DNA of 64,000 nt, from positions 1-64,000 of IMG/VR virus record IMGVR_UViG_3300034410_000480; one strand, given 5' to 3'. The position numbers were made by a program, and so were the translations under genes. Source of the stretch: a virus (taxonomy: Duplodnaviria; Caudoviricetes). Numbering within the stretch: position 1 is the first letter of the stretch; the number at the start of each line of letters is the position of its first letter. Below are positions 12,601-35,517 of the stretch, one piece after another. A model generated the notes under the pieces. That model made no database searches. It was not told the origin of the DNA and saw only the letters and a list, made by a program, of their open reading frames with translations.

Positions 12601-13044
12601 ATGAAAGCAGATATAGTATGTAGCGGAGCCTTAATTTTTGCCAAAGAAACAGAAAGATTTTTACTTTTGCATAGAGCAAATGGTAAAAAGAACAATCTTT
12701 GGGGACTAGTAGGTGGCGGTAATGAAGCTGGAGAAACACCGTTTGAAGGCTTAAAACGTGAAATAATAGAAGAAATAGGCGAAATGCCAAATATAAGGAA
12801 AACTATTCCTTTAGAAAGTTTTGTTAGTAATGACGAACATTTTCATTTTCACACCTATTTGTGCGTAATAAATGAAGAATTTATACCTAATTTAAACAGT
12901 GAACATGATGGTTATGCATGGGTATCTTTTGGTATGTGGCCTAAGCCATTACACCATGGCCTTAGAAATACACTTCAAAGTAAAGTAAACCAAACAAAAT
13001 TACGCACTGTATTTCAAGTAATATCTTTACTTGACGAATCTTAA
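12601..13044 (+). CDS. NUDIX hydrolase
   Basis: Nudix box G-GNEAG-E-TPFEGLK-REIIEEIG; downstream LNSEHDGYAWV. Confidence 0.92.
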   Translation: MKADIVCSGALIFAKETERFLLLHRANGKKNNLWGLVGGGNEAGETPFEGLKREIIEEIGEMPNIRKTIPLESFVSNDEHFHFHTYLCVINEEFIPNLNSEHDGYAWVSFGMWPKPLHHGLRNTLQSKVNQTKLRTVFQVISLLDES

Positions 13045-13059
13045 TAAGAATGTTATAAT
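13031..13059 (+). promoter_or_regulatory. Near-consensus sigma70 promoter for the hldE-hldD-cupin cassette (leaderless)
   Basis: TTGACG(13031)-17 nt-TATAAT(13054) with TGn extension; ATG lies 5 nt downstream at 13065 with no SD. Confidence 0.85.
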
Positions 13060-13064
13060 TAACC

Positions 13065-14228
13065 ATGTCAAAAGTATTAGTTTTAGGTGATGTTATAATC
13101 GACAAATATGTTTATGGTACTAGTTCTCGAATTAGTCCAGAAGCACCTGTTCCTGTAATTACATATTCAGAAGAAAAAGAGACATTAGGTGGTGCAGGAC
13201 TTGTTTACGAAAATCTTAAAAGCCTAGGTGTAGATGTTACATTGTTCGAGACCGGTCAGCCGCACAGTATAAAGACACGCATTATATGTGACGGGCATTA
13301 TATTACACGAATAGACAATGATAAAGATGCAAAATCAAATGTAGTATTAGATGAAGTATTATGTAGTAATTTTTCAGAATATGATTATGTAATATTGAGC
13401 GATTATGACAAAGGTGCACTAGACAATGCAAAACAAATTATTGCACACATTAACAGTCAAGGTCCTAAAGTAATTGTAGACCCAAAACGATATGCACACG
13501 AGTACGAAGGTGCTTGGCTAGTAAAGCCCAACAACAGTGAATATACCAAGTTTGAGTTTGACGAATGGCAAGGCAACATTATTACCACAGACGCAGGTCA
13601 CAGTGTAAGTGCTACAATAGACGATATTGAATATACAATTCCTGTAGAACCAGTAGAAGTATCAGATGTTACTGGAGCTGGAGATTGTTTTATGGCTGCA
13701 TTTGTATACGGGTTAACAAAAAATTATGATTACAAAAAATGTTTAAAACTAGCAGTGTTAGGATCTACTGAAAGTGTAAAACATAGTGGTACATACATAC
13801 TAAAAGAAACAGATTTACAAAAACGTATAATTTTTACAAATGGCTGTTTTGATATTCTACACAAAGGCCATTTAACATTGTTAAAAAAGGCACGTAGTTT
13901 AGGAGATAAATTAATTGTAGGTTTAAACACTGATAACAGTGTTAAGAAACTAAAAGGTCCTAGTCGTCCAATAAATGATGAGCAAACAAGACTAGAACAA
14001 TTAGAAATTTTAGACTGGGTAGATGAAGTTATATTGTTTGATGACAAAACTCCATATAATTTAATAAAAAATCTAAAACCCGACCTTATTGTAAAGGGCG
14101 GAGACTACAAGGTTGACGAAATTGTAGGGCATGATTTAGCACCTGTGCATATTATACCTACTGTTCAAGGATATTCAACTACAAATATTATAGAGAATAC
14201 AAATGAAAATACTAATTACAGGCTATAA
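13065..14228 (+). CDS. hldE: Bifunctional heptose-7-phosphate kinase / heptose-1-phosphate adenylyltransferase
   Basis: VLGDVIIDKY..G...RISPEAPVPV, GGAG, LSDYDKG, VDPK, KPN, DVTGAGD (PfkB kinase), then FTNGCFDILHKGH...GDKLIVGLNTD...KGGDY (nucleotidyltransferase). Confidence 0.95.
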   Translation: MSKVLVLGDVIIDKYVYGTSSRISPEAPVPVITYSEEKETLGGAGLVYENLKSLGVDVTLFETGQPHSIKTRIICDGHYITRIDNDKDAKSNVVLDEVLCSNFSEYDYVILSDYDKGALDNAKQIIAHINSQGPKVIVDPKRYAHEYEGAWLVKPNNSEYTKFEFDEWQGNIITTDAGHSVSATIDDIEYTIPVEPVEVSDVTGAGDCFMAAFVYGLTKNYDYKKCLKLAVLGSTESVKHSGTYILKETDLQKRIIFTNGCFDILHKGHLTLLKKARSLGDKLIVGLNTDNSVKKLKGPSRPINDEQTRLEQLEILDWVDEVILFDDKTPYNLIKNLKPDLIVKGGDYKVDEIVGHDLAPVHIIPTVQGYSTTNIIENTNENTNYRL

Positions 14229-15033
14229 AGGATTTATAGCACAAAATTTAGGTAGATATTTACATTCACAAGGCCATGAAGTAGAAGGCTTTGACTGGAT
14301 TACAAATACCTTACCGGCTGTTGATTTTTACGATCAAATTATTCATCTAGGTGCAATTAGTGAAACAACTTGTACTGACGTTGAAGCAGTGATGGAGCAA
14401 AATTTAGACTTTTCTACAAGGTTGTTAGGACTATGCGAAAATTACGGAACAAATTTAATGTATGCTTCTAGTGCAAGTGTATATGGTCCTTTGAAAGACT
14501 GTAAAGAAACATCACCCTGTTTACCTAAATCGCCCTATGCATGGTCGAAATACCTGTTTGATAGAATTGTTACTTCAGCAGATGTATCCGAGTTTGGGTG
14601 TAGGGTACAAGGTTTTAGGTATTTTAATGTTTTTGGTGAGTATGAAGACCATAAAGGATCGCAGGCTAGTATTTTTCACCAATTTCGTAAACAAGCATTT
14701 AATGGATCTATACAACCTTTTCAAAATTCTGACAATTATTACCGTGATTTTATATATGTTGGTGATATTTGTAAAATTACCGAAAAATTCTTAGATATTG
14801 ACGAAAGTGGTATATGGAATATAGGTAGTGGTCATGCAGAAAGTATCGGCGCAGTGGCAAAATTCATGTCCGAGCGCATGGGAGTACCTATAAAAGAAGT
14901 AGAAATGCCAACATCACTGCATGGTCAGTACCAAGAATACACTTGCAGTGACAATACTAAACTTTTAAACACAATTGGTGACTTTAAATTCACTACACCT
15001 TATGAATGGATGGAAAATGGTAACAAGACTTGA
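14203..15033 (+). CDS. hldD: ADP-L-glycero-D-manno-heptose 6-epimerase-like extended SDR
   Basis: ITGYKGFIA Rossmann motif, HLGAIS.T, YASSASVYG, YAWSK (YxxxK), FRYFNVFG..EDHKGSQAS (HldD has FRYFNVYG..E.HKGSMAS), RDFIYVGD, YQEYT. Confidence 0.9.
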   Translation: MKILITGYKGFIAQNLGRYLHSQGHEVEGFDWITNTLPAVDFYDQIIHLGAISETTCTDVEAVMEQNLDFSTRLLGLCENYGTNLMYASSASVYGPLKDCKETSPCLPKSPYAWSKYLFDRIVTSADVSEFGCRVQGFRYFNVFGEYEDHKGSQASIFHQFRKQAFNGSIQPFQNSDNYYRDFIYVGDICKITEKFLDIDESGIWNIGSGHAESIGAVAKFMSERMGVPIKEVEMPTSLHGQYQEYTCSDNTKLLNTIGDFKFTTPYEWMENGNKT

Positions 15034-22748: not shown

Positions 22749-23711
22749 TTATGATCCTAAAGCAATTGCTAATGCAGTAACGTTTTCGTCCACATACCGT
22801 TTGTTTGCTATGCCGGTAGTTGTTGTTGGTGATTGTGTAACAGATGCTGTAGTAAATGCACCTGTTCCTGGCGTAGTTGCACCTATATTTATTCCGTTTA
22901 ATGTGCCTGCTGTTGCTTCTAGAGTTGAAAAAGATCCAGTAGCAGGTACATTGTTTCCTATGTTTATATTATTAATTGATCCTACAGTTCCACTGTCAAT
23001 TGTTACAATACCTGAGCCTCTTGCAATTAAATTTATAGGATTGTCTTGAGGACGTAAATCAATTAAGCCGCTTGTGCTTGTAATTGACGGAGCGGTTATT
23101 GCTAACCCTTCTACAGATCCTGTACTAGCTGAAATATTAACAGTACCTGATCCTGTAGGTTGTAATCTAATAGATGCATCTGCACCTAATGCGTTAATAT
23201 TGCCAGCAACAGTAAGTGTGTTAAATGAGCCATTGCCTGTTACAACAGGATCAGATATTGCAATTTGACCAAACGGAGCGCCTGTTGAATTTGTGTAACG
23301 TAACGCTGCTGGCGCATCTATAGGAACATCAAAGGTTAGAATTCCTGTGGTTTTTCCTTGGGCAGCTGCACCTGTTGTTGTTACATTATTAGTTGTAGTG
23401 TGTGATACACCAGTATTATATAGTGCAGACCCGTCTTCGTTTGAAATATTAAAATTTAATGTTGACAGTGTAAGAGCAATTGTATATCTTACACCTCTTA
23501 ACAATGTAAGTGAAGGATTGTCCGGGTCATTACCTGTTTCTCTAAATTGAGATGCACCTGATTCTGAAAATGCATAATCGGTTTCTGTTTCGTCTTCAGC
23601 AGCAATAGTAAACGACAAAGACCGGGCAGTAATGTTACCCTGGTCGTCTACTGTAAATCCTGTGCTTTTAAAACCATGTTCCGATTCAAACGGATTATAT
23701 GTAATAGGCAT
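22749..23711 (-). CDS. Tail fibre / connector protein
   Basis: NPSLTLLRGVRY...LTFDVPIDAP..LRY module, INNINIG...PATGSFS fibre repeats, ANKRYVD and C-terminal ALAIALGS. Confidence 0.7.
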   Translation of the reverse strand: MPITYNPFESEHGFKSTGFTVDDQGNITARSLSFTIAAEDETETDYAFSESGASQFRETGNDPDNPSLTLLRGVRYTIALTLSTLNFNISNEDGSALYNTGVSHTTTNNVTTTGAAAQGKTTGILTFDVPIDAPAALRYTNSTGAPFGQIAISDPVVTGNGSFNTLTVAGNINALGADASIRLQPTGSGTVNISASTGSVEGLAITAPSITSTSGLIDLRPQDNPINLIARGSGIVTIDSGTVGSINNINIGNNVPATGSFSTLEATAGTLNGINIGATTPGTGAFTTASVTQSPTTTTGIANKRYVDENVTALAIALGS

Positions 23712-23727
23712 TTAACACTCCTTACAG

Positions 23728-23735
23728 TATTTATC
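23728..23735 (-). promoter_or_regulatory. Late promoter-like GATAAATA
   Basis: Followed by SD AAGGAG and ATG 23711. Confidence 0.7.
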
Positions 23736-23737
23736 TT

Positions 23738-24148
23738 TTAGTAAGGAACCAATAAATTTTGATTTTGGAAGTAAAATGCATTGTAAACTAATTTACTATT
23801 TTTATATGCATCGTCAGTAGGAGTAGCTTTTAAACTTACATAAGAATCATTTACTGTAGCACTTAGATTTACAATTTCATTGCCTAAATTTGATCTTCCA
23901 AAAACTGTAAGTGTTGCTTTGTCTAAAGATGCAACTACTAATATTTTTAACATTTCTTTATTTTGTGTATCTAAGTCTACAAAGACTGTATACTCTGCGC
24001 CTGTAAAATCTCCTAGATAAAAACGATCAAATTCTGTTTCTTGCGGAATTGCTACCCACGGACCGGTTCTCATTAATTGTGTATCGTTTTTTAGACTTAT
24101 AGTATTTTTTCTACCTACTTGTAAATACTTGTCAATAAATATTGCCAT
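23738..24148 (-). CDS. Small structural protein, stand-alone paralogue of the C-terminal domain of the 60802 fibre
   Basis: DF..A.Y.V......KEM..I.V.....A.....G......L...SA.V....V.L.ATP aligns by eye with DFRTAKVLIQI...EMLILH...LATFSTQVSGGNIELLATP. Confidence 0.6.
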   Translation of the reverse strand: MAIFIDKYLQVGRKNTISLKNDTQLMRTGPWVAIPQETEFDRFYLGDFTGAEYTVFVDLDTQNKEMLKILVVASLDKATLTVFGRSNLGNEIVNLSATVNDSYVSLKATPTDDAYKNSKLVYNAFYFQNQNLLVPY

Positions 24149-24168: not shown

Positions 24169-24176
24169 TATTTATT
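24169..24176 (-). promoter_or_regulatory. Late promoter-like AATAAATA overlapping the carbamoyltransferase stop codon
   Basis: Followed by SD AAGGAG and ATG 24148. Confidence 0.6.
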
Positions 24177-25953
24177 CGGTTACACACGTTATTAATTTTC
24201 CAAATTCTGGTAGATATAGATAGTTAATACCACTTTGTGATAGCGTCCATAACGCATCTTCTAGTGTTTCAACAAGGGGTTCTCCCCCTAAGTTAAATGA
24301 TGTATTAAAAATAATTGGACATCCTGTTGCATCTTTAAACGCCTTGATAAGTCTATAATAGTTTGGGTTTTGTTCTTCGTTTACAGTTTGTATACGACAT
24401 GTTCCGTCTATGTGAATGATTGCAGGAATTTTTTCTTCAATACCTGGCCGACAATTTACAGCATACATCATTGTAGGTGAACTATCCATACCACGTAAGT
24501 CAAACCACTCATGTACATCTTCTTCTAATATACTACCTGCAAATGGACGAAAGTATTCTCTGTGTTTAACTTCGTTTACAAAATCTTTTCCATTTGGATC
24601 TGTAGGATCATAAAGTATACTTCTGTTTCCTAATGCACGGGGACCATTTTCCGACTTTCCTTGAAATATACTTACAATATTTTTTGTTGTAATTAAATTA
24701 ATTACATCTTTATCGACTGCATCTTGCACTGTAGCATTATATTTTTTTGCTAAAGTTTCGATTTCGTTTTTTGAATAACAGTAATGAAATCCTTCGTATA
24801 ACGTATCTGTCCTTTTTCGAACAGTTGTATCTTTAGTAATTTCATACCATTGAAGTAGTGCTGCGCCCATTGCTGTTCCGCTATCATTAGATACAGGCTC
24901 AACATATATTTCAATGTCATCTAAATTGTCTAAGTAATAGTAGTTAGCAACACAGTTTAACCCATAACCGCCACTTATTACAACCTTATTTTTACCAGTC
25001 ATTTCAACTGCTTTTTGAATTAGTTTTAACACTTGTTCTTGTGTTTGTGTTTGTACAGCATAGGCTAAGTCACGTCTATTTTGTAATAGTGTAAGATCCT
25101 GTTCTTCTTCGCCAGATTCATGTAATTCTTCGTATACATCTTTGTTAACATATGCACCGTTAGGATATGTTGGAATAATTAAATTTCTATTACTGACATC
25201 GCCGTATAGTGTACTATGAAAAAGTTTTGGAATATTTTCGTTTGGCTTACCATACGGAAACAGGCCCATTGTTTTTCCAGCTTCGATAAAATTCCATCCA
25301 CAATATTCTGTAACAGCTTCGTAAGTTTTTGTTATTCCGGCTTTTTCGGTTACATATGCTTCATGTGTGCCATTATCATTAAAGATAGTACTATCAATAC
25401 CTTCTGCAAATTTTTCAACTAATGGACCTGTAGTGCCAATATTCTTTCTTACAGTAGCTAAATTATTAGGATAAGAACAATCAAATATAGTTTCAACTTC
25501 CCAAACTATAGTATCTCCCATATTAATAAATGTACCTGCGCCGTCAACAACTAGACCAGCTGCTTCTTTAAACCCGCTTCTATAAAAAGCACATGCTGCA
25601 TGTAGTTTATGATGATAACTACTCATATCAATTACTTGAGGGTGGTCATAAGGATTTTGTTTCCTATCAATAAGACCAAGTTTTCTTGCTAAACCTGTAT
25701 ACATATCATCACCACTAAAATCTATTCTACCTGCTTCATTTAATGGTTGGGTATGTGCTACAACTAGATAATCTAATTTATCTGTATATTCTAATATTTT
25801 ATACATTCCAGCAAACGGCCCACCGTCATATTTCTGGCGGCTTAACCTTTCTTCTTCAATATTAAAAATAATTTCACCATCTTTTAAAAGACATACACTT
25901 GCGTTATGGCCTCTAGCAATAGCAGCAATCCATATAGGATCTGTTTTAATCAT
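24172..25953 (-). CDS. O-carbamoyltransferase, NodU/CmcH/TobZ family
   Basis: HNASVCL..DG......EEERLSR.K, HHKLHA, VVDGAG, GKTMGL.PYG, SGG..LNC.AN, ND.G...GAA (Kae1-like domain); E.GPRALGNRSIL, K.RE.FRPFA, H.DGT.R.QTV, NTSFN (YrdC-like domain). Confidence 0.95.
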   Translation of the reverse strand: MIKTDPIWIAAIARGHNASVCLLKDGEIIFNIEEERLSRQKYDGGPFAGMYKILEYTDKLDYLVVAHTQPLNEAGRIDFSGDDMYTGLARKLGLIDRKQNPYDHPQVIDMSSYHHKLHAACAFYRSGFKEAAGLVVDGAGTFINMGDTIVWEVETIFDCSYPNNLATVRKNIGTTGPLVEKFAEGIDSTIFNDNGTHEAYVTEKAGITKTYEAVTEYCGWNFIEAGKTMGLFPYGKPNENIPKLFHSTLYGDVSNRNLIIPTYPNGAYVNKDVYEELHESGEEEQDLTLLQNRRDLAYAVQTQTQEQVLKLIQKAVEMTGKNKVVISGGYGLNCVANYYYLDNLDDIEIYVEPVSNDSGTAMGAALLQWYEITKDTTVRKRTDTLYEGFHYCYSKNEIETLAKKYNATVQDAVDKDVINLITTKNIVSIFQGKSENGPRALGNRSILYDPTDPNGKDFVNEVKHREYFRPFAGSILEEDVHEWFDLRGMDSSPTMMYAVNCRPGIEEKIPAIIHIDGTCRIQTVNEEQNPNYYRLIKAFKDATGCPIIFNTSFNLGGEPLVETLEDALWTLSQSGINYLYLPEFGKLITCVTE

Positions 25954-26924
25954 TATGCTGCATCCTTTAGCTCAGGTTTACCATTCCATTTTTTTTGATT
26001 TTTAACACACGATTCAACAATGACATTTTCTATTTTATCATTCATTCTCATAACACCTTCGTTCATTCTATCTGTATATTCATCTACAGTTATACGTATA
26101 GGACTATACATTCTAGCATCTTCTCCCATATCTAAAATATCAAAATATTTACAGCCAGGATATGATACATTTATTTCATATGTACTACCTAAAACAATTG
26201 TTGCAGGTGTGCGCAATGCATATGACATATGTTGTCCTACACTATCGCATCCTAAAAAATAATCTGCTTGATTTATAATAGCAGACCATTCTCTTAAGTC
26301 AGCTCCTTGAGGTATAGCTATAGGTTCTTTAATATCGTAGTCACCAAATTGTATACCTATTTCTGACATAAACACTACTGCAAACTTTTTAGAAAGTTTT
26401 CTCACAATACTTACAACAGCTTCAGGCTCGAAACTCCTTCCAGTAGGATCTAAAATCATACCGTCTTCATTCATAATACCTCTACCAAATGGCTGAAATA
26501 CTATTACTTTTTCTTTTTTTGTTTTTTCTTTAATTTCTTTTATAAGTTTTTGTGCAAAGACAGTTTCTTGTTTTCCAAGGTAGATGTGAGGACGAGGCAA
26601 ATCCCTAAGACCTTGTTTATTAATTTCTATGTCGTATGCTTGAGCTAAACTGCATTTTTGATTATAATATTCCCAAACTCTATACGGCTCAGGACTTATT
26701 AAATCCATATCTTTTAATTTATCTTCAAATAAATTTTTATGCCATACATCGTATGCACGTTTATGCAATTGCGGATGTCCTTTATAAAAATCAGTTCCGC
26801 CCTCACAGACTATTATAAAATCGTTATTTGGATTTTCTTTTTCGAACAATTCTAATGCTGGAATGCTTGTAATTACACGGCCTGCGCCGCCATTAATAAA
26901 AAATGCTTTGTTTCTTTCTGTCAT
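25953..26924 (-). CDS. GT-B glycosyltransferase, GT9 (ADP-heptose heptosyltransferase)-like, with atypical active site
   Basis: FFINGGAGRVITSIPAL (WaaC has IVKTSSMGDVLHTLPAL); LREWSAIINQADYFLGCDSVGQHMSYAL..P...LGST (GT9 E...D(T/S)G..H motif); coupled by TAATG to the carbamoyltransferase. Confidence 0.8.
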   Translation of the reverse strand: MTERNKAFFINGGAGRVITSIPALELFEKENPNNDFIIVCEGGTDFYKGHPQLHKRAYDVWHKNLFEDKLKDMDLISPEPYRVWEYYNQKCSLAQAYDIEINKQGLRDLPRPHIYLGKQETVFAQKLIKEIKEKTKKEKVIVFQPFGRGIMNEDGMILDPTGRSFEPEAVVSIVRKLSKKFAVVFMSEIGIQFGDYDIKEPIAIPQGADLREWSAIINQADYFLGCDSVGQHMSYALRTPATIVLGSTYEINVSYPGCKYFDILDMGEDARMYSPIRITVDEYTDRMNEGVMRMNDKIENVIVESCVKNQKKWNGKPELKDAA

Positions 26925-26961
26925 AAAAATACCTCTCTATAAATTACTTATAGAGAGGTAT
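26925..26961 (-). promoter_or_regulatory. Terminator-like 14-bp hairpin that sequesters the GT9 SD and contains a TATAAGTA late-box variant
   Basis: Minus strand reads ATACCTCTCTATAA-GTAAT-TTATAGAGAGGTAT-TTTT-ATG. Confidence 0.8.
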
Positions 26962-26983
26962 ACAAAATTAAACTAAAAGTGGT

Positions 26984-27601
26984 TTAACCGCCTTCTGGTA
27001 TATCTGGCATCAGTACTTCCCATGGTTCGTGCCCTGCCCAAACAGTAGTGATATCTCTTAATGCTTGTCTATATGTTACCCACGGTGCTTTTACACTTTC
27101 TGGTATATCATCTCTAACTCTAGGATCACTCCAAATTAATAGAGAGTTACGTATATCTCTTATTCCGTCCCACGTAATTAAATTTCTATCCCATGTGTAA
27201 GACCAAGTACTAGTTGCTGTATCATATACAATACCTTCACAGCGATATGCTTCGTGCGGCGGTAAAGGATCAAAATCTATATGTGTTTTACCATCTGGAA
27301 GTGCCCATGATCTCGTAGGAGCCTCTCCATCAAAGTCTGTTGCAACAAAAGTTGCTACTAATGGATCACGAGTCGGATCAACTTCTACTTTAATTTCTGT
27401 TGGTACAGGATTAAATGTTTCTCCGTCTGTTTCTACAGTTAATGCATCTCTCGGTTCAAGTTGTCCAGTTTCGGCATCTATAAACACCCATATTCTATCT
27501 GGTCCTGTATATGACCACGATGCTAGAGTGTAATTTTCTAAGTTAGGTTCACCACGTTTGTTTGGTGCTTTATAACTAAAATCTACATTTATTGTCGTCA
27601 T
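26984..27601 (-). CDS. Tail fibre assembly chaperone-like protein (paralogue 2)
   Basis: C-terminal WDGIRDIRNSLL..SD.....D.P...K..W..YRQALRDIT is the tail-assembly-chaperone pattern; YTGPD..W.F.D..TG shared with 29126..29776. Confidence 0.75.
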   Translation of the reverse strand: MTTINVDFSYKAPNKRGEPNLENYTLASWSYTGPDRIWVFIDAETGQLEPRDALTVETDGETFNPVPTEIKVEVDPTRDPLVATFVATDFDGEAPTRSWALPDGKTHIDFDPLPPHEAYRCEGIVYDTATSTWSYTWDRNLITWDGIRDIRNSLLIWSDPRVRDDIPESVKAPWVTYRQALRDITTVWAGHEPWEVLMPDIPEGG

Positions 27602-27609
27602 TACTAATC

Positions 27610-28353
27610 CTATCTAAATATTAAGTATACTTGGCCGCCGGCGCCCGGTGTTCCACATTGGCTAGTACAACCGCCTTGTGTATGCGATGTCATGCCACCT
27701 CCGCCTGGAAATGTTCCGAAGTAACATCCTGCGCCATATCTATTCATACAGCAACCATTTTCAAACATACGTGTATGTCCTGTCATTGCAGGTCCTGGAT
27801 TAACTTCATAAGTGTGGTTGTAACACCAGTTGTTGTTAAACACATATGATAAATTTCTTGGATGGATTGTTCCTGTAACACCACTACCTTGAACAGCTCC
27901 ACCGTTTTCTTGACAAACACGCTGACATGTGTAGCAATAGAATCCATTACATTGCCAATAACCGTGACAGCCGCCACATGCTACAATACACCATGTACTT
28001 GGCTTACAAATATAAGAATTGCTACCGTTTTGGCAACTACTGTAACTTCTACAACAAGTTGAACCAGCTGCACATACTGTTATATTATCGCCTGGCTGAA
28101 CCGGTGCATTGAATTCTACGTATCCTCCCGGGCTGCCTCCGCATCCATATGTACAACAATATCCACCTGCACCTGCGCCACCGCCTGCCCAAACTTCGCC
28201 GCTGACGCTAGACATATTAGGTCCTACAGTATATAAACAACATTTACCTCCGTTGTTACCTGTAGTAATATTAGTGTTAAATACCACTAACTCTTGCGGA
28301 ACATTACTCCCTCCTGCTTCGTATCCATATAAATAATCTCTTAAATTAGCCAT
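27610..28353 (-). CDS. Cys/Gly-rich fibre-tip-like protein (paralogue 3)
   Basis: About 23 Cys in 247 aa (manual count); NNGGKCCLYTV...EVWAGGG...VCAAGSTCC...FPGGGG...CGTPGAGG.V. Confidence 0.75.
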   Translation of the reverse strand: MANLRDYLYGYEAGGSNVPQELVVFNTNITTGNNGGKCCLYTVGPNMSSVSGEVWAGGGAGAGGYCCTYGCGGSPGGYVEFNAPVQPGDNITVCAAGSTCCRSYSSCQNGSNSYICKPSTWCIVACGGCHGYWQCNGFYCYTCQRVCQENGGAVQGSGVTGTIHPRNLSYVFNNNWCYNHTYEVNPGPAMTGHTRMFENGCCMNRYGAGCYFGTFPGGGGMTSHTQGGCTSQCGTPGAGGQVYLIFR

Positions 28354-28362
28354 TTTCTATCC

Positions 28363-29112
28363 TTATTCCGATGCAACATAAAGTAATTGTACCATGCCAG
28401 ATCCGCCCGGAGCACCACAAACAGTACCACCTGCACTATTACCGCTCATACCACCGTGTCCTGGATATGGTACACAGTTTCCCATAAATGCCAATCCATG
28501 ACATGTTGCACAACCTGTCATACTCCATATTCCTGTCGTATGTGCATATGGCGCTCCTGGAGCAAACTGTTTAAAGTTACACTTACCACCGTATGTCCAT
28601 TTTCCGTGTCCTTGTACAGGACGAATACATAATGTGGCACCTAGTACACACCCTGTCTGACAATTATTTAATGAATTACCGCAACTACAGTTACCGTAAC
28701 TGAGTGTACATCCGCCTGAGCCTCCACTTACGCACACACAATCTGTAGAGGCTTGACATATATATGATCCAAAACCGGTGCATCCGCAACAACTTGATCT
28801 ACAGCACGTAGTTCCGCCTGCACAAATTGTCCACTGAGTTCCTGGAGAAGTTTCAATTATTTTTCTTGCATAAGCGCCTGGACCGCCGCTGCGTCCGGCG
28901 TGACAGTTAGGTGCACCAGCGCCAGCGCCGCCGCCTCCCCACAATTCTACACCTATCCATGTAACGTTTGCAGGCACAGTAAATAAACAACATCTACCTC
29001 CGTTGTTAACATTAGACGGTGATGATGCTAATATCCTTACAACGGACATTGTGCCGTTTGTTGGTACTCCTCCGTCGGTTCCGTAATCTAATAAACTTCT
29101 TAAGCCTGCCAT
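28363..29112 (-). CDS. Cys/Gly-rich fibre-tip-like protein (paralogue 2)
   Basis: About 23 Cys in 249 aa; NNGGRCCLFTVP...ELWGGGG...ICAGGTTCC...YPGHGG...CGAPGGSG.V. Confidence 0.75.
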   Translation of the reverse strand: MAGLRSLLDYGTDGGVPTNGTMSVVRILASSPSNVNNGGRCCLFTVPANVTWIGVELWGGGGAGAGAPNCHAGRSGGPGAYARKIIETSPGTQWTICAGGTTCCRSSCCGCTGFGSYICQASTDCVCVSGGSGGCTLSYGNCSCGNSLNNCQTGCVLGATLCIRPVQGHGKWTYGGKCNFKQFAPGAPYAHTTGIWSMTGCATCHGLAFMGNCVPYPGHGGMSGNSAGGTVCGAPGGSGMVQLLYVASE

Positions 29113-29125
29113 TTTATATCCTTAA

Positions 29126-29776
29126 TTATGCTGAATCTTCAGGTGATTCAGGAAAAATTACTTTATGAGCATCTTGGCCTATCCAGTTTGCCGGTAATGC
29201 TCTAAGTGCAGCCCTGTATGCTACCCAAGTTGCTTTTAAATCGTCTGGCATATCTGCCGGAACCTTGTAATCTGAACTTTCTAAAGCAGTATCTCTTGCT
29301 GATCTTACATCATCCCAAGTTACTTCTGCTTCTATAAAGCTATGTGTCCACGCACCATCTGCATAACGTATTGTTGTTCTATCTACAATTTCGTCTGGCG
29401 ATTGTGGCCAATCAAAGCTATAATCTGCTGTACTATCGTCAGCTAATGTAATAGTTTCAGTTACTGTTGATCTTGCAGTAGATTGCGAATACCCGCTAGG
29501 GTCAATAATAGAAGCAATAAACGGATCATCTGCTGAATTAACTACTACCTTTAATGCACCTGCCGGAGTGCCTATATCAGCTCCATCATTTTCGTCTGTT
29601 AAAGTTGGCCACATACCTTGTGACATAATCCCTGTAGTTTCATCTACAAAAATATACCATTTATCTGGGCCTGTATATTCTGCATTTACTGTTACGTTAT
29701 TACTTGTCGATGTGCTAAATTGCTCATCTGGAGCGGTAAAAGTAAATGCTTGTGTTATAATATTATTGTTTGGCAT
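29126..29776 (-). CDS. Tail fibre assembly chaperone-like protein (paralogue 1)
   Basis: C-terminal WDDVRSARDTALESSD....D.P......W..YRAALRALP.......FPESP. Confidence 0.75.
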   Translation of the reverse strand: MPNNNIITQAFTFTAPDEQFSTSTSNNVTVNAEYTGPDKWYIFVDETTGIMSQGMWPTLTDENDGADIGTPAGALKVVVNSADDPFIASIIDPSGYSQSTARSTVTETITLADDSTADYSFDWPQSPDEIVDRTTIRYADGAWTHSFIEAEVTWDDVRSARDTALESSDYKVPADMPDDLKATWVAYRAALRALPANWIGQDAHKVIFPESPEDSA

Positions 29777-29788
29777 CTTTTCTTTCCT

Positions 29789-30520
29789 TTATGCATATGA
29801 CACTCTAATTATTCCGCCCATACCCGGAGTACCACATTTACAAACTCCTGAACATGTTATAGCGTTTGATCCTGGACCTGCTGGAAAGTGTCCGTATCCC
29901 CAGCAACAAGCATTACAATATGTTGTATTCATACATAGTGACCTTGTAGCATTAAAAGTACCTAATTGATAAGCACCTCCCATGACCCATTTATTAGTAT
30001 TCATACATCCACCTTCTTTATGTGTTGTATTTCTGATTGCTGGCATACACCATTCACCTGCTGTTGTTTTACAAACAACACATCCTGCACAACAGGTAGT
30101 GCCGTCTAATGTAAAACACGATGTTCTACCCGGTTCACCTGATGGCGCACATGTTGTTGCTATTCCTGATCCACTAACATACGATGTTGCTCCTGTAGTG
30201 CCGCCACAACTTGAACTACAGCATCCGCTTCCTGCTGCGCATAGTGTATATGTACAACCGGCTACAGTTGAAATTGTACGCATTGCATACATGCCTCCTG
30301 AGCCAGTGAATACTGTTGCTTGACAGCATCTAGCAGCAGGACCGCTGGGACCTGATCCCCATAATTCAAATGTAACTTGGGTTACACCATCTGGCACAGT
30401 CCATAAGCAACACCGACCACCATTATTCTGGCTCCTGCTATCATTCGATATAGTAAACGAAGTTATTCCCGGGTTAGAGGTTGGTGCTAGGTCTACTTTT
30501 AAACTACTTAAACTTGCCAT
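29789..30520 (-). CDS. Cys/Gly-rich fibre-tip-like protein (paralogue 1)
   Basis: About 24 Cys in 243 aa; NNGGRCCLWTVPDGVT.VTFELWGSG...LCAAGSGCC...FPAGPG...CGTPGMGG.I. Confidence 0.75.
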   Translation of the reverse strand: MASLSSLKVDLAPTSNPGITSFTISNDSRSQNNGGRCCLWTVPDGVTQVTFELWGSGPSGPAARCCQATVFTGSGGMYAMRTISTVAGCTYTLCAAGSGCCSSSCGGTTGATSYVSGSGIATTCAPSGEPGRTSCFTLDGTTCCAGCVVCKTTAGEWCMPAIRNTTHKEGGCMNTNKWVMGGAYQLGTFNATRSLCMNTTYCNACCWGYGHFPAGPGSNAITCSGVCKCGTPGMGGIIRVSYA

Positions 30521-30535
30521 TATGCTTCCTTATTA

Positions 30536-30868
30536 TTATGATCCTGCTAAGACCCAGCCATATGTTGCTCCGCTATAAACTAGGGTAGCTGCACTGTTGC
30601 CAATGTCTAACGCTAAGTCTTCTGCTAAGCCATGTATGTTATGTCCATTTCTTGCTACAGTACAATTATTCGTACCAAAATCTCCTGCAACATCAATAAA
30701 CTGAATTGTATCGTTTACTAATGTTGTTGCCTGACTAGGTAGTGTAACTGTAACAGTAGCTGAACTTGTATCAACCAACAAACGTTCGTTTGCTACTGCT
30801 GCTGTGTTTCCAGTTACAGTACGTACTGTAGTGCTTGCTGAACCTGTTGTTGTAATGTATCTTGCCAT
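30536..30868 (-). CDS. Small fibre adaptor domain protein
   Basis: LVDTS...VTVTLP.......I.F.D..G.F.TNNCTV..NG.NI.G.AEDL.LD.......LVY....GW; the same domain ends 52557..53516. Confidence 0.7.
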   Translation of the reverse strand: MARYITTTGSASTTVRTVTGNTAAVANERLLVDTSSATVTVTLPSQATTLVNDTIQFIDVAGDFGTNNCTVARNGHNIHGLAEDLALDIGNSAATLVYSGATYGWVLAGS

Positions 30869-30888
30869 TTTAATTCCTTACTACAATG

Positions 30889-30896
30889 TATTTATC
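30889..30896 (-). promoter_or_regulatory. Late promoter-like GATAAATA heading the adaptor / Cys-rich / chaperone unit
   Basis: Overlaps the TGA of 30895..31221; SD AAGGA lies downstream. Confidence 0.75.
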
Positions 30897-31236: not shown

Positions 31237-34200
31237 CTATGCGTTTAAAAAGTACTGTAACGCTAATGGTGTTCCAGATACCCCTTGGGTGAAGTTTGTT
31301 GTTGCTCCTACAATAATTGTAGAATTATCAGTTGTGGAAATTGTATTTCCTGTAATTTGTATATTACCGGCAACTAATGTGTTAACGTTTAGTGTAGCAC
31401 CACCACCACCAATTTGTGCGTTAATATACGTTCTTATAGCCCTTTGGGTAGGAACAATATTATCACTATCTGCTGCAAATGTTCCATCTGTACTAAATTC
31501 TCTAATTGTAGCACTTGTACCACCTAAGCTAACACTACCGAGTTGTAGTTCTTGTAGACCACTAACACTAAAGTTATCAGCATCTAGTGTAGCAGTACCT
31601 GTTGCTTGTTCAACTGTAAACAAGTCGCCAACTCTAAAGTTACCATCTTGGTCAGTAGAAGTATAAAATACTCGTCCACCGCCTGATTCCCTTGTTTCAG
31701 CATCTGCGTCGGGCGCATTTGCAGGAATTCCAGGATAGTTAGTATCAGTAAAATTACCAGTACCTATATCTAAGAAATCATGTCCTGTTAAACGTACTTG
31801 AGAATATCTTATTCGTAGTGTTACTTGTGCGCCATGTGCTGGTTCTGAGTCTACTGCAATTTCTGGACTTACTTGTAATCTAGCAGCATAAGGCCCAGAT
31901 CCTGTAAGTTCAAATACTTCAACTAGTTTATATATAGTCGAGTCGCCTGCAATTTGTACGTTTGAGCCAGGTAAAGGTTCATTTATAGATGCTTCTACAT
32001 ATAAATATTTTCCGCTTTGTTTGACATCAGCATACCCGTCACCGTCAATGCTTGTTGAACATGTTTCGTATCCTGTACCTCTATCACTAAAGGTAGGCGG
32101 TCCTAATACCCCGTCACCTATTCTTACTTCTAATGGTGCATCAATTGTATTAATAGGATCTGTTATAGTTACTGTTGGCGGGTTAAGAGTATCATATCCG
32201 CTGCCTGGATCAAATAATGTTATTTGGAATATTTTTCCGCTTGCAACTTTAACTCTTGCTCGTGCAGTTGTTCCTGATACAGGATCACCGATTGATATTC
32301 TAGGTTCAACTCTATATTGAGATGTTTGATCTAATGCAACTTCAAGCGCAGTACCTGGAACTAAATGATCCCATCCCGAAGTGTCGTCGCTCATTTTTTT
32401 AATTGTTGCTAGTTTTGTACCTGCATTATATGTATCAATATACCCGTACTGTCCAACACCCACACCGTCTTCAATATATACTGCCATGCCAATATAATCA
32501 GCACTATTTGCTGTATCAGTTGCTGACAATGTAATAGATGTAGTTGTGCCTGTTTGTGCATTATTTAAAGATGTTTGGTAATCAGCACCACCATAATTTC
32601 CTGCACTATTTAACAACCGTATTTCAAACACGCCGCCATCATTTGTATCTATTGCGCCTACTGCTGCGTCGATGCCTTCACCGATAAATGTATAAGTTGC
32701 GGTTGTATATGATACACCACAGTTTGCATATTCTAGTGCTAGGATTCTGTCACCGTCGGTAATAGTATTTGCAACGTTTGCTTCTGTATAGTAGTTATTG
32801 ACTGTACTTGTATTAGGCACTTCTGTTGAGTCAATGCCTTCTGCCACTGAACCGTATGCACCATATGAGTTGTTACCGTTAGTAGCACGAATCTTACCAC
32901 CGTTTTCTGCAAGGTAACCAATATGATTGTAGTATGTAAACACACTAACAAGCTCTGATCTACCTAAGTTTGTAACCCAATATCCAATTCCATCGCTTAA
33001 GATTTGTGTAAAGTCGTTAGCAACAATACTGTCGTTTCCGCCGTCATGTAATGCACCGTCAACTTTTAACCCTATACAGCCTGAACCAAAGGTTGACACA
33101 TTCTGTATGTATGGCGATTTACTATGAATCCAAACTATTCTATCTGATTCATCTTCTCCTGGATCTAAACTTACGTAGGCGCCTGCGCTAGGACGACTTG
33201 TACCATACGCATTTGCTCCGCTAAGTGATCCTGTTAAGCCTGCAAGTGTACAGTTTCTTATTCCGCAACCGTTTCTAACATAAAACATATTTTCTGTTTC
33301 ATAACCTGTATCAGGCTTAATTTTTGTTGAACGTAACTCGTCGCCTACTAATGCTGTATGTGCAGGAATAGAAATTGGTAATTGCTCTAAGTACTCACCT
33401 GTTTTAACAAATACAGTTGTATTAACAACTTGTTCTGCAGGTAAAGCATTTGTATTGCCAGCTGTAATAGATGCAGTAACTAACCCTACTAAAGTATCAT
33501 ATGTAGTTTCTGCATCAGCTTCTTCTGTTTTAGTGCCGTCAATAGTTTGTGTTACAGGTGTTGCAACACTGTTTTCAGTTTGATAGTTTGTAGCTGGAGC
33601 AACATTACTTAACACAGCATCAACAACTTCCAAACTATAATTGATAGATGCAACAGTTTCTGTTTCTTGTCCAAGAATATAGCTTGCACCTGCTTCGGTA
33701 AAATATGATTGTGCTGTTTTTCTTGTTTCAACATTTCCGCCGTGTGATATATCATATCCTACTGCTTTTACAATTTTTTTCATATCTCGCAAGCACAAAG
33801 CCTTATCATATGTAAATGCATTTGTAAATGGTGCAATACTATTTGCAATCTGATAATCAGTCCATTCTACAACTTCTGCTGCAATGAAATCTACATTTGC
33901 ATCTAATAATGCCTTTGCGTTGTGTCTTCTAGTTGAGGTTAAAATGTAATTCATACAATATGCTACACTAGCATATGGTCTATCTAAGGTTGTTCCAAAT
34001 CCGTCTGCATCTGTTCCGTTTGGTGCTACGTAAAATACGTTTTCAACAAATCCAAAATCAATCCATTCAGGCGCGGTTGCACTTGCATTAACTGCTAATA
34101 CCTGTCCTGGATTTCCTATAGGTAATCTAGCCGGTCCTGACCCTGCATAATATAATATATCACCGTCAGTTGTAAGTGTGTTTTCTTCTGCAGTTGAACT

Positions 34201-35499
34201 TACAATATTCCAATATGTACCAAGTGTATCTAAATCTGGTTTGTTTGACGCAATGTCTGCTATGTGTGCCAAGATACAAACATATGCATTTCCACTAAAA
34301 TTAACAACGTCTCCTGCAACATATGACGTTGCATCAGCCCACGCACTAGTCCAATAGAAGCCTTCGTTTAGTTTATCCCAGTAGCTTGCATTAGGTGGAG
34401 TATTGCCAACATTGTCAGCATTACAAAGATATGTGTAACCGTTTAATCTTACAACATCACCTACTTTATAATTTGTAGCAATGTCCCAATCGCCTTCTAA
34501 ATTAAATCCAGTTATAAATAAATCCCAGGCTGCAGGTGTTGTTGATGGCACACTATTGCTGTGATCTGTTTTTGCGATATATGTATATCCACCATATGTT
34601 ACAATGTCACCTGGTTGATAAATTGTGCTATTGCTCCATGAATCTTCAAATTCTATGCCGGGTAAATATACATCCCAATTAGATGAGTCAGCAGCAAATG
34701 TTCCAGTGGATGTGTGTTCTGCTGTGGAAATATATAAGCTAGGTCCGTTTTTTACAACATCGTTTACCGTATAACGTGTAGTAGGTGCCCACGCTGCTCT
34801 GTAATTAATGCCATCGTACATTAAATTCCAGTTAATAATATCATCTTCTAAACCTGCTGCAACAGTAGCTTGTGATGTGTGTCCTGTAGAGCACATGTAA
34901 ATTCTTCCGTAATAATTTACTACATCGTACTCTTTGTAACGTGTGCTTGTTGTCCAAACACCTTTCCAATCCATGCCTCTTGAAAAGACTGACCATTTTA
35001 AATCGTCGACTTCTAACCCGTCTACAATATTTGCAGCACTTGTATGCGCTTCTGTACAAATATATGTAGCTGTGCCATATGCTATGATATCATTGACTTT
35101 ATATTTTGTGTTTGTGTTCCAGCTGCCTGCATAATTTAAGCCTTCAGCAAACAAATCCCAGTTCGAAAGATTACCTTCAAGACCTATTAATACATCAGCA
35201 TTAGACGTGTGTCCTGTATTACATATATACAAGAAACCGCCGTTTTTAACAATGTCATTTACTTTATAATATGTTGCAACATTCCAATCGCCGCGCCATG
35301 CTAAACCGTCGCCGAACTGTTCCCATTTTGGTTGGACATCATTAAGATCTGTTTCAAGATCACTACTTGCTGTATGTGCAAGGATGGCAATAAATGTTTT
35401 ACCACCATACGATACAATATCGTCACGTACATATTCAGTACCTGCGGTCCAGGTACCCTTCCAGATAAATCTGATTCTACCGAGTTTAAATTCAGCCAT
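31237..35499 (-). CDS. Large tail fibre/spike: Trp-rich carbohydrate-binding-like repeats plus beta-helix-like domain; start revised to ATG 35499
   Basis: Eight W....Y..(N/G)D.V...G..Y.C...HTS repeats; YVAPNG.D...G, VKTG.Y.E, GDELRS, SPYIQN.S.FG, NDFTQ, GGGRVFYTSTDQDGNFRVG. Confidence 0.8.
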   Translation of the reverse strand: MAEFKLGRIRFIWKGTWTAGTEYVRDDIVSYGGKTFIAILAHTASSDLETDLNDVQPKWEQFGDGLAWRGDWNVATYYKVNDIVKNGGFLYICNTGHTSNADVLIGLEGNLSNWDLFAEGLNYAGSWNTNTKYKVNDIIAYGTATYICTEAHTSAANIVDGLEVDDLKWSVFSRGMDWKGVWTTSTRYKEYDVVNYYGRIYMCSTGHTSQATVAAGLEDDIINWNLMYDGINYRAAWAPTTRYTVNDVVKNGPSLYISTAEHTSTGTFAADSSNWDVYLPGIEFEDSWSNSTIYQPGDIVTYGGYTYIAKTDHSNSVPSTTPAAWDLFITGFNLEGDWDIATNYKVGDVVRLNGYTYLCNADNVGNTPPNASYWDKLNEGFYWTSAWADATSYVAGDVVNFSGNAYVCILAHIADIASNKPDLDTLGTYWNIVSSTAEENTLTTDGDILYYAGSGPARLPIGNPGQVLAVNASATAPEWIDFGFVENVFYVAPNGTDADGFGTTLDRPYASVAYCMNYILTSTRRHNAKALLDANVDFIAAEVVEWTDYQIANSIAPFTNAFTYDKALCLRDMKKIVKAVGYDISHGGNVETRKTAQSYFTEAGASYILGQETETVASINYSLEVVDAVLSNVAPATNYQTENSVATPVTQTIDGTKTEEADAETTYDTLVGLVTASITAGNTNALPAEQVVNTTVFVKTGEYLEQLPISIPAHTALVGDELRSTKIKPDTGYETENMFYVRNGCGIRNCTLAGLTGSLSGANAYGTSRPSAGAYVSLDPGEDESDRIVWIHSKSPYIQNVSTFGSGCIGLKVDGALHDGGNDSIVANDFTQILSDGIGYWVTNLGRSELVSVFTYYNHIGYLAENGGKIRATNGNNSYGAYGSVAEGIDSTEVPNTSTVNNYYTEANVANTITDGDRILALEYANCGVSYTTATYTFIGEGIDAAVGAIDTNDGGVFEIRLLNSAGNYGGADYQTSLNNAQTGTTTSITLSATDTANSADYIGMAVYIEDGVGVGQYGYIDTYNAGTKLATIKKMSDDTSGWDHLVPGTALEVALDQTSQYRVEPRISIGDPVSGTTARARVKVASGKIFQITLFDPGSGYDTLNPPTVTITDPINTIDAPLEVRIGDGVLGPPTFSDRGTGYETCSTSIDGDGYADVKQSGKYLYVEASINEPLPGSNVQIAGDSTIYKLVEVFELTGSGPYAARLQVSPEIAVDSEPAHGAQVTLRIRYSQVRLTGHDFLDIGTGNFTDTNYPGIPANAPDADAETRESGGGRVFYTSTDQDGNFRVGDLFTVEQATGTATLDADNFSVSGLQELQLGSVSLGGTSATIREFSTDGTFAADSDNIVPTQRAIRTYINAQIGGGGATLNVNTLVAGNIQITGNTISTTDNSTIIVGATTNFTQGVSGTPLALQYFLNA

Positions 35500-35501
35500 T
35501 C

Positions 35502-35517
35502 GGTTCACTCTCCCCTA
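35502..35517 (-). repeat. 16-nt leader element, copy 1 (TAGGGGAGAGTGAACC)
   Basis: Identical to 60760..60775; both copies are followed by NN-ATGGC. Confidence 0.9.

Follow-up and report, generated by a model that had tools for sequence, protein, structure and literature searches.

Among described systems, the fibre of cyanophage Pam3 gives the best structural match to a set of cysteine-rich candidate fibre tips encoded, together with a glycosyltransferase (GT) and a carbamoyltransferase (CT), on the minus strand at 24172–30896 of a 64,000-nucleotide stretch of viral DNA (the window; positions 1 to 64,000 of the IMG/VR record IMGVR_UViG_3300034410_000480). Pam3 gp24 is described as a trimeric receptor-binding fibre of ~250 residues that needs a Tfa-type chaperone, and Pam3 tails are described as using disulfides (PMC9608196, PMC9942802). 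As reported for gp24/gp25 (PDB 7ypx and 7yfw), an N-terminal docking helix is followed by a tumour necrosis factor (TNF)-like domain and then by a GGGGxG glycine-rich domain, and the Tfa-type chaperone gene (gp25) lies downstream of the fibre gene, all of which is comparable to the present locus. However, in gp24 the glycine-rich domain is not Cys-rich (39% Gly; 15% identity to tip 1), a single fibre gene takes the place of the three paralogues found here behind a large fibre and adaptors, and no GT or CT has been described with it. The T2/S16-type gp38 adhesin, reported to be related by fold to Pam3 gp24 (PMC9608196), is likewise a glycine-rich distal-fibre adhesin of ~250 residues (a polyglycine II sandwich) with conserved Gly motifs and hypervariable loops; unlike the present proteins it is described as monomeric, with a β-helix middle domain, and not Cys-rich, and it is not among the reported Foldseek matches of tip 1.

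The enzymes also have described counterparts. The TibC/TibA and Aah/AIDA-I systems each pair an adhesin with a GT9-fold enzyme that heptosylates it from ADP-heptose in the cytoplasm and whose gene lies beside that of the adhesin. TibC forms an iron-binding dodecamer and has a catalytic Asp, whereas the phage GT, which has no detectable sequence similarity to it, carries Arg at the position of WaaC Asp13 and is shorter (323 versus ~400 residues). The lipopolysaccharide (LPS) enzymes WaaC/WaaF, taken together with WapO, combine a GT9-fold heptosyltransferase, a NodU-family CT and an ADP-heptose pathway as the present locus does; the Pseudomonas core is reported to carry 7-O-carbamoyl heptose II (HepII), and WapO is thought to carbamoylate HepII (PMC8005017). 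In that system, however, the acceptor is lipid A bearing 3-deoxy-D-manno-octulosonate (Kdo2-lipid A), whereas LPS without heptose or Kdo is reported for the hosts concerned here: a review (PMC4515613) describes marine Synechococcus WH8102 and CC9311 LPS as having neither sugar, and WH8102 is the host of phage Sf-FS3, in which the same module is found. The phage GT differs further from WaaC/WaaF in lying below the Pfam and NCBIfam cut-offs and in lacking the catalytic Asp. HypF–HypE shares with the CT the Kae1/YrdC-like carbamoyl-AMP chemistry superfamily, whereas the domain architecture and the nearest solved relatives of the CT are those of O-carbamoyltransferases.

The same genes occur in P-SSM2, S-SM2 and S-SSM7 as parts of what have been called cyanophage 'LPS gene clusters' (Sullivan et al., 2010; PMC3037559), and in the record annotations T4-GC 302 is the GT, 303 is the CT and 304–308 are heptose genes. 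The neighbouring genes are called 'LPS genes' in the literature (PMC3037559, PMC7378029); the first of these articles leaves their function open, as 'stuffer DNA' or as functionally linked genes, and the terms 'cysteine' and 'tail fiber' are absent from its main text. Each part of the present locus is thus of a known kind: a Pam3-like tip, a Tfa chaperone, a GT9 fold and a NodU-family CT. What appears to be undescribed, in the main texts of the open-access PMC and bioRxiv literature, is the Cys-laden branch of the Gly_rich_2 domain, its near-obligate coupling to an Arg-type GT9 and a CT, and what this would imply, namely a service of the 'LPS genes' to the fibre.

Confidence is high in how this module is built and in its linkage. 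A search with the GT matched 439 IMG/VR stretches, of which the best 80 (54–99% GT identity) were used for locus counts. The CT adjoins the GT in 80/80 of these loci (gap ≤25 nucleotides in 22, inserted genes in 48, and the order GT–CT–GT or CT–GT in 10), and Cys-rich genes are adjacent in 71/80: three in 63, two in seven and one in a single locus. In the nine loci without Cys-rich genes the contig breaks off within 0.2–4.6 kb of the GT on the side where these genes would lie. A local inversion of the enzyme pair, seen in 16 loci, leaves it next to the tip module. For the reverse search, 114 loci with a sequence coding for the motif WGGGGxGAGxCCC were collected, of which the 32 with at least 6 kb downstream were judged, the other 82 being too short; GT and CT were present in 32/32, with 21 of the 32 contigs new to the first set and GT identity reaching down to 36%. 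The first-pass annotation of this DNA, which had recognized the block as a candidate cluster, had named separation of the enzymes from Cys-rich genes in other genomes among the observations that would refute it, and the adjacency holds across phage contigs in both directions. The isolates S-SSM7, S-CAM1, P-SSM2 and Sf-FS3 have the same gene order; among complete genomes P-SSM2 has both families, and neither the GT nor the tip family was found in S-SM2, S-PM2, Syn9 and P-SSM4. Searches by tblastn with the Cys-rich proteins, which are insensitive for this family, returned 3 records (24% query cover), 0, and 11 (S-CAM1/S-CAM3 only), and megablast of the block against phage records gave 0 matches. 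The median identity to the window over the loci is 63% for the GT and 66% for the CT, compared with 34–39% for the tips and 32% for the chaperones; slowly evolving enzymes beside fast-evolving tips and chaperones are what would be expected if an unchanging tailoring function served receptor-binding proteins that diversify.

The loci vary between and around the two enzyme genes. In the 48 loci with inserted genes, one or two paralogous genes coding for 270–316 residues lie between GT and CT (for example L014:10947-11846 and L021:10341-12142); the window has none. Their products begin with the pattern RLFxFGCSxTxYxWPTWAD...ENWGxxGxGN, and the sequences tested matched no Pfam or PHROG family; the FGCSxT...GxGN pattern may resemble the SGNH/GDSL block motifs. 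In the ten loci with the CT upstream of the last GT (L059-L062, L067, L068, L077, L080, L082 and L084), the CT stands in nine between two GT paralogues, 46–54% and 58–61% identical to the window GT; in L062 the sequence ends just upstream and CT–GT alone is visible. In S-SSM7 (L001:7317-7976) and Sf-FS3 (L005:7305-7937) a gene resembling 2-oxoglutarate (2OG)-Fe(II) oxygenases and prolyl-4-hydroxylases lies between chaperone and GT, immediately upstream of the latter, and the Sf-FS3 cluster holds several further 2OG-Fe(II) oxygenase-like genes and a second carbamoyltransferase.

The three tips of the window contain 24/243, 23/249 and 23/247 Cys residues (9.9, 9.2 and 9.3%) with 5, 3 and 4 CC pairs, whereas the 14 neighbouring proteins average 0.48% Cys with zero CC pairs. 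Their N-termini, inspected by eye, are polar (consensus MAxLRxLL) with no evident signal peptide. The three window proteins had no Pfam match at E ≤ 0.1 and no NCBIfam match, and the PHROG family to which all three belong, phrog_4205, carries a function-less annotation. The 173 unique tip homologues from the related loci form one BLAST-connected family (80 clusters at 60% identity) with 19–46 Cys per protein and a composition of 18.5% Gly and 9.8% Cys in which charged residues are scarce. In an alignment of 54 of these sequences the scaffold is fixed: MAxLRxLL ... NGGxCCxWTVPxGxT ... FExWGGGGxGAGxCCC is followed by GGSGxY ... YxICAA ... FPGGGG ... GAGGxVxIxY, and the CCC motif is near-invariant. 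About nine Cys columns are at least 90% conserved and most Cys positions are variable.

The identity of these proteins is suggested by other family members and by structure prediction. Gly_rich_2 (PF21722) is matched by 24 of the 54 aligned sequences (best E = 1.8e-10) and is present in 47% and 17% of the members of the protein-atlas clusters nearest to tip 2; the tip family profile matches 2574 clusters (at 50% identity) at E ≤ 1e-3, with a median Cys content of 9% among the top 150. A profile search of solved structures with the tips gave no significant sequence match. The AlphaFold2 model of tip 1 has a mean predicted local distance difference test (pLDDT) score of 79.5 and a predicted template-modelling (pTM) score of 0.80, and its best Foldseek match is the Pam3 fibre (7ypx_A, E = 1.6e-5, probability 1.00, TM-score 0.47; 7yfw_a, E = 4.2e-5), with moderate TM-scores of 0.43–0.47, followed by the Bxb1 tail tip (E = 1.6e-3) and then by the TNF-like plus glycine-rich (TG) domains of ALK/LTK. 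Taken together with the Phage_tail_APC family of the chaperones (PF16778, cut-off 26.6 bits; chaperone 1 above it at 36.7 bits and chaperone 2 slightly under it at 24.1 bits), these matches agree with the earlier proposal of fibre-tip-like proteins with dedicated chaperones, and the tips are predicted to be a Cys-laden branch of the Gly_rich_2 fibre-tip domain with a TNF-like plus glycine-rich fold.

The Cys load itself is a derived trait of the phage branch. The library protein P0055 (5418 residues), an exception to the high Cys content of the matched clusters, has seven tandem copies of the tip glycine-rich domain, matched by the tip family profile and free of Cys, and when aligned to these copies the conserved tip Cys fall on buried aliphatic or small core positions of the Cys-free homologues; P0055 has 0 Cys within its first 2400 residues. 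Among the 173 proteins the Cys count is odd in 98 and even in 75, which does not fit a purely intramolecular disulfide scheme and would point to inter-chain bonds, metal sites or free thiols; a fully disulfide-bonded fold, for which even counts are expected, does not agree with the same figures. The tip cysteines probably have a mainly structural role and would form cross-links, by disulfides or metal, when the virion reaches oxic seawater.

The AlphaFold2 model of the GT (pLDDT 87.2) matches GT9 entries at every rank of the PDB matches listed, down to rank 14, including 3tov (E = 8.9e-11, TM-score 0.64–0.66), WaaC (1e-9), TibC (1.2e-8) and WaaF (2.5e-8). In sequence comparisons the GT matched no Pfam family at E ≤ 0.1, gave local NCBIfam matches of 21 bits to RfaQ (cut-off 467) and to heptosyltransferase III (HepIII; cut-off 170), aligned to WaaC and WaaF with hhalign probabilities of 15% and 5.6%, and showed nothing significant in a sequence-profile search of solved structures. 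Its putative donor-binding motif GCDSVGQH (GCDSxGQH in the family) retains D227, S228, Q231 and H232 in 33/33 sequences and aligns with DTGLSH of WaaC and DSGLMH of WaaF, that is, with the GT9 motif D-(S/T)-G-x-x-H. In a local alignment GRVITSIPAL of the GT lies opposite GDVLHTLPAL of WaaC, which places G15–R16 opposite G12–D13, and Arg16 is invariant in the 33 phage sequences. Asp13 of WaaC is implicated by mutagenesis in the role of catalytic base and is reported as strictly conserved in heptosyltransferase I (HepI) homologues (bioRxiv 10.1101/2021.06.16.448588). The GT is accordingly described here, from its model and alignment, as having a predicted atypical GT9 fold with Arg replacing the catalytic Asp, as the first-pass annotation had proposed.

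A GT homologue with 26% identity was found in Vibrio phage K479 (L004, 6881-12678), between two giant virion (tail) proteins; it belongs to the same phrog_8954, carries a GLGRVICAIPAL motif, reaches 21.0 bits against PF01075 (cut-off 22) and also has the Arg. The 1643-residue tail protein encoded downstream of it contains 39 Cys, locally 11 in 150 residues. In the P-SSM2 record, the open frame around the GT match (235279-236193) contains one TGA.

The CT carries both Carbam_trans_N and Carbam_trans_C above their cut-offs (198.7 bits against 27 and 98.7 bits against 24). Its PDB relatives are 7xb6, NovN, TobZ and GdmN (E = 4e-56 to 9e-44), all of which are sugar or polyketide O-carbamoyltransferases. 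It scores 142 against the NodU equivalog cut-off of 1000 and is therefore a family member and not a NodU orthologue. Against the HypF model TIGR00143 the score is 15.6 bits (cut-off 466.1), confined to residues 285–366. By these sequence comparisons the CT groups with sugar O-carbamoyltransferases and not with HypF.

A sugar donor may also be supplied by the phage. The window codes for HldE-like and HldD-like proteins, which had been overlooked at first and which point to heptose as the sugar and, if the Pseudomonas core is taken as a model, to carbamoyl-heptose. The HldE-like protein has rfaE domains I and II (NCBIfam) and PfkB and CTP_transf_like domains (Pfam). Heptose-pathway genes lie directly 3' of the CT in S-SSM7, S-CAM1, P-SSM2 and Sf-FS3. 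By genomic context, in the window and in the isolates, ADP-heptose may be the donor for the GT; the window HldE and HldD are the probable source of donor sugar. The two genes stand in a plus-strand island (12601-15033), in which a NUDIX hydrolase gene precedes them, amid minus-strand structural genes and 10 kb from the cassette.

The features are collected in the table below. The window is the late/structural region of a T4-like cyanomyovirus and codes for tail sheath, tube, neck and baseplate–fibre proteins; its parent record is an 86.5-kb fragment with a completeness estimate of 28%, and the nearest annotated relatives of its genes are from Synechococcus and Prochlorococcus Kyanoviridae. The open reading frames and their order in the minus-strand block are as first described, from the late box to the TAATG overlap that joins GT and CT, as are the Cys counts, and the intergenic gaps are 8–59 nucleotides.

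Table of features of the window that belong to, or bear on, the fibre-tip module
Feature	Position	Strand	Evidence
Large tail-fibre protein, 1423 residues, head of module	31237..35508	-	Pfam CBM_5_12, E 4e-41, 7 stretches
Small fibre-like protein, 108 residues	30895..31221	-	phrog_11338 tail fiber protein, E 6.7e-11
Late-promoter-like box, T4-type	30888..30895	-	GATAAATAC = (G)ATAAATAC; adaptor start 20 nucleotides downstream
Adaptor, 110 residues, relative of gp9/gp10-type baseplate/fibre attachment domain	30536..30868	-	phrog_31104, E 5e-18; many tail-protein PHROGs
Cys-rich candidate fibre tip 1, 243 residues, 24 Cys, 15% Gly	29789..30520	-	phrog_4205, E 3e-31
Tail-fibre assembly chaperone 1, 216 residues, 0 Cys	29126..29776	-	Phage_tail_APC, E 3.9e-9; phrog_4912 tail fiber assembly
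Cys-rich candidate fibre tip 2, 249 residues, 23 Cys, 20.5% Gly	28363..29112	-	phrog_4205, E 2e-25
Cys-rich candidate fibre tip 3, 247 residues, 23 Cys, 19% Gly	27610..28353	-	phrog_4205, E 1e-9
Tail-fibre assembly chaperone 2, 205 residues	26984..27601	-	Phage_tail_APC, E 3.3e-5; phrog_9740 and phrog_4912
Predicted hairpin, 14-bp stem, then UUUUU-AUG	26929..26961	-	folding energy -20.2 kcal/mol, z -5.0
GT, predicted atypical GT9 fold, 323 residues	25953..26924	-	AlphaFold2 and Foldseek; phrog_8954, E 1e-146
CT, NodU/CmcH/TobZ-family O-carbamoyltransferase, 593 residues	24172..25953	-	Carbam_trans_C, E 6.5e-59; Carbam_trans_N, E 5.8e-28
HldE-like bifunctional heptose-7-phosphate kinase/heptose-1-phosphate adenylyltransferase	13065..14228	+	NCBIfam HldE, E 2.6e-84, below equivalog cut-off
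HldD-like ADP-glyceromanno-heptose 6-epimerase	14203..15033	+	TIGR02197, E 5e-60, 203 bits (cut-off 275); Pfam Epimerase

The large fibre is syntenic with the 'tail fiber protein' of S-SSM7, S-CAM1 and P-SSM2, lies upstream in the collinear loci and has its seven carbohydrate-binding repeats in its N-terminal part. It is followed by two conserved proteins of ~106–110 residues, the first of which (the small fibre-like protein) has a homologue in 65/80 loci with a median identity of 55%; the second, the adaptor, matches Pfam T4_gp9_10_N at E = 7e-4 and 20.1 bits, under the cut-off of 25. On the other side, 3' of the CT, genes for 136 and 320 residues (22749-24148, minus strand), each with its own ATAAATAC box, are syntenic in 66/80 and 51/80 relatives, and the 320-residue product is fibre-connector-like (phrog_677), so that the enzyme pair is sandwiched by two fibre modules.

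The sequence ATAAATAC is not over-represented in the window (8 observed versus 7.4 expected), and all seven of its minus-strand copies lie 2–25 nucleotides upstream of minus-strand start codons; there is no such box between 30888 and 24168. From this placement the genes from adaptor to CT resemble one late unit, and late expression may be inferred. The sequence TATAAATA is not enriched in the window either (6 observed versus 11 expected). The 59-nucleotide gap before the GT holds the hairpin, whose stability was equalled by 0/200 shuffled sequences and whose 3' arm contains the GT Shine–Dalgarno sequence. In the relatives a hairpin occupies the same position with a different stem sequence (z ≤ -2.5 in 42/80), with the Shine–Dalgarno sequence always in its 3' arm, and it is absent in the loci with an inverted enzyme pair. 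The hairpin would act as a terminator-like element, as a translational attenuator or as both, and the stretch from adaptor through CT may thus form one late unit attenuated at the hairpin.

From these elements a mechanism can be proposed, tentatively and as a possibility still well short of confidence, in which the late-expressed cassette puts carbamoyl-heptose on fibre proteins. The module comprises the large fibre, two small adaptors, three fast-evolving paralogous tips and two Tfa-type chaperones, followed by a fixed enzyme pair whose output would be held low by the hairpin relative to that of the structural proteins. Phage HldE and HldD would make ADP-heptose, the sugar reported to be absent from marine Synechococcus LPS; in the cytoplasm, as late assembly proceeds, the GT would transfer heptose to a fibre protein of the virion, with the Cys-rich tips or proteins beside them as the most plausible acceptors, and the CT would then O-carbamoylate the fibre-borne heptose, as has been proposed for WapO and HepII. 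The tip cysteines would serve as structural cross-links (disulfide or metal) and not as acceptor sites. A virion protein is favoured as the acceptor by the late operon context, by the tip-specific linkage and by the reported heptose- and Kdo-free LPS of Synechococcus, and TibC, one of the fold matches, shows that heptosylation of an adhesin is within the reach of a GT9 fold.

Several points weigh against this proposal. Fibre glycosylation is a prediction from gene content, and the tips show no prominent conserved Ser, Thr or Asn: the residues in their columns of at least 90% conservation comprise Gly, Cys, Pro, Trp, Tyr, Glu and Leu. The Foldseek comparison fails to separate the lipid-acceptor enzymes WaaC/WaaF from the protein-acceptor enzyme TibC, and the replacement of Asp by Arg in all 33 GTs could mean other chemistry or inactivity. 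The Vibrio-phage homologue keeps the Arg with neither a CT nor a Cys-rich tip adjoining it. A search of the 86-kb record, itself 28% complete, for GmhA was empty, and no GmhB was seen in it either. S-SM2 is reported with heptose genes (PMC3037559), and it has them in the absence of the GT and the tips, which indicates that the heptose pathway is not exclusive to the cassette. Finally, all 80 loci have at least 54% GT identity and represent one viral lineage, and an inversion that leaves the enzyme pair where it was, between two fibre modules, speaks less strongly for selection on adjacency than a translocation would.

The main alternative, which we judge rather unlikely, is that the GT and the CT use phage-made ADP-heptose to alter an envelope glycan of the host that serves as a receptor, and so prevent superinfection or the loss of progeny on debris; the enzyme genes would then lie beside receptor-binding genes because the two co-evolve. 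Genes that block or modify receptors are found near receptor-binding protein genes in other phages, as with llp beside the pb5 gene in T5 and gtr near the tailspike gene in P22. This explanation draws on the LPS enzymes WaaC and WaaF among the best fold matches of the GT, on its weak local NCBIfam matches to RfaQ and heptosyltransferase III, on the naming of the neighbouring genes as 'LPS genes', on carbamoyl-heptose as a reported feature of the Pseudomonas LPS core and on the retention of heptose genes by S-SM2 without tips or GT. It is, however, countered at three points. The canonical GT9 acceptor, the inner core of Kdo and heptose, is the very structure that marine Synechococcus LPS is reported to lack; the cassette, which is without a separate late box, stands behind fibre genes in a late-type unit, whereas exclusion functions are usually early; and the linkage is specific to the Cys-rich tips, which accompany the enzymes in 71/71 adequately flanked loci and in every locus of the reverse search and are absent together with the GT from four genomes.

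A further alternative, which we regard as improbable, treats the GT as a pseudoenzyme that would serve the tips, either as an assembly factor with affinity for a sugar or nucleotide or as a minor component of the virion, with the CT acting on an unrelated small molecule. The Arg in place of the Asp implicated as the catalytic base would fit this, as would the failure of the GT to match the Pfam GT9 family at E ≤ 0.1 and the position of the Vibrio-phage homologues between giant virion proteins without a CT. The donor-binding motif is nevertheless invariant in all 33 sequences and aligned with that of WaaC/WaaF, the GT is tightly coupled in translation to a sugar O-carbamoyltransferase, heptose-pathway genes are nearby, and the GT is highly conserved relative to its structural neighbours, all of which argue for an active enzyme.

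We attach a slim probability to the cysteines themselves as acceptors, through S-heptosylation by the Arg-type GT9, S-carbamoylation or both, which would protect or functionalize the thiols of tips folded in a reducing cytoplasm. This would explain why a family with so extreme a Cys content strictly co-occurs with a GT9 devoid of the general-base Asp, since a thiolate acceptor may need less base catalysis, and the parity of the Cys counts, by which not all Cys are in intramolecular disulfides, and the near-invariant CCC motif are compatible with it. Against this, the CT belongs with O-carbamoyltransferases, the conserved Cys align with buried residues of Cys-free homologues, only the few conserved Cys columns noted above stand against a majority of variable positions, and the Vibrio-phage homologue keeps the Arg with no Cys-rich tip gene adjoining it. 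No GT9 enzyme is known to make S-glycosides. The first-pass annotation had drawn an analogy to the S-carbamoylation of Cys by HypF, had offered Cys as a modified residue and had framed the cluster as RiPP-like (after the ribosomally synthesized and post-translationally modified peptides), with the tips as precursors. The analogy is not upheld by a CT whose matches are TobZ, NovN and GdmN, nor the modification by the core location of the conserved Cys; the tips are predicted to be folded TNF-like plus glycine-rich domains of 243–249 residues and not leader–core peptides, and no RiPP hallmark (protease or leader) is evident around them, so that the likeness is limited to gene-cluster logic. DNA hypermodification, in which CT and GT would decorate hydroxymethylated bases of the phage DNA, has a precedent in a phage 5-hydroxymethylcytosine carbamoyltransferase (bioRxiv 10.1101/2024.12.05.627091) and in the known DNA-modifying phage glycosyltransferases, but it is hardly credible for a cassette that is embedded in a fibre module at every examined locus and associated with ADP-heptose genes, in a record (28% complete) in whose 86 kb no thymidylate-synthase-like hydroxymethylase was found.

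In conclusion, few viruses of the ocean are as abundant as the cyanomyoviruses that infect Prochlorococcus and Synechococcus, yet their host recognition is poorly known. The module described here brings to light candidate receptor-binding tips that form a large and fast-evolving family and are tied to a conserved enzyme pair that was listed under 'LPS genes' in the 2010 genome comparison (PMC3037559). The module is available in the cultured isolates S-SSM7, S-CAM1, P-SSM2 and Sf-FS3. If the enzymes remodel the host surface instead of the fibre, the cassette would be a late-acting receptor-masking system. If they decorate the fibre, as in the mechanism that we prefer, it would represent a new kind of phage virion modification that bears on host range, stability and the avoidance of decoys, and in the Arg-type GT9 a catalytic variant would be new. 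A bolder and improbable form of this proposal is that the invariant Arg marks a GT9 branch that is new and particular to viruses and heptosylates the Cys-rich tips themselves, possibly on thiols, with the heptose then O-carbamoylated. If this were true, these cyanophages would display on their tips a sugar that their hosts do not make, and the module would be the first viral protein-heptosylation system and would give a functional explanation for the long-puzzling 'LPS genes' of cyanophages.

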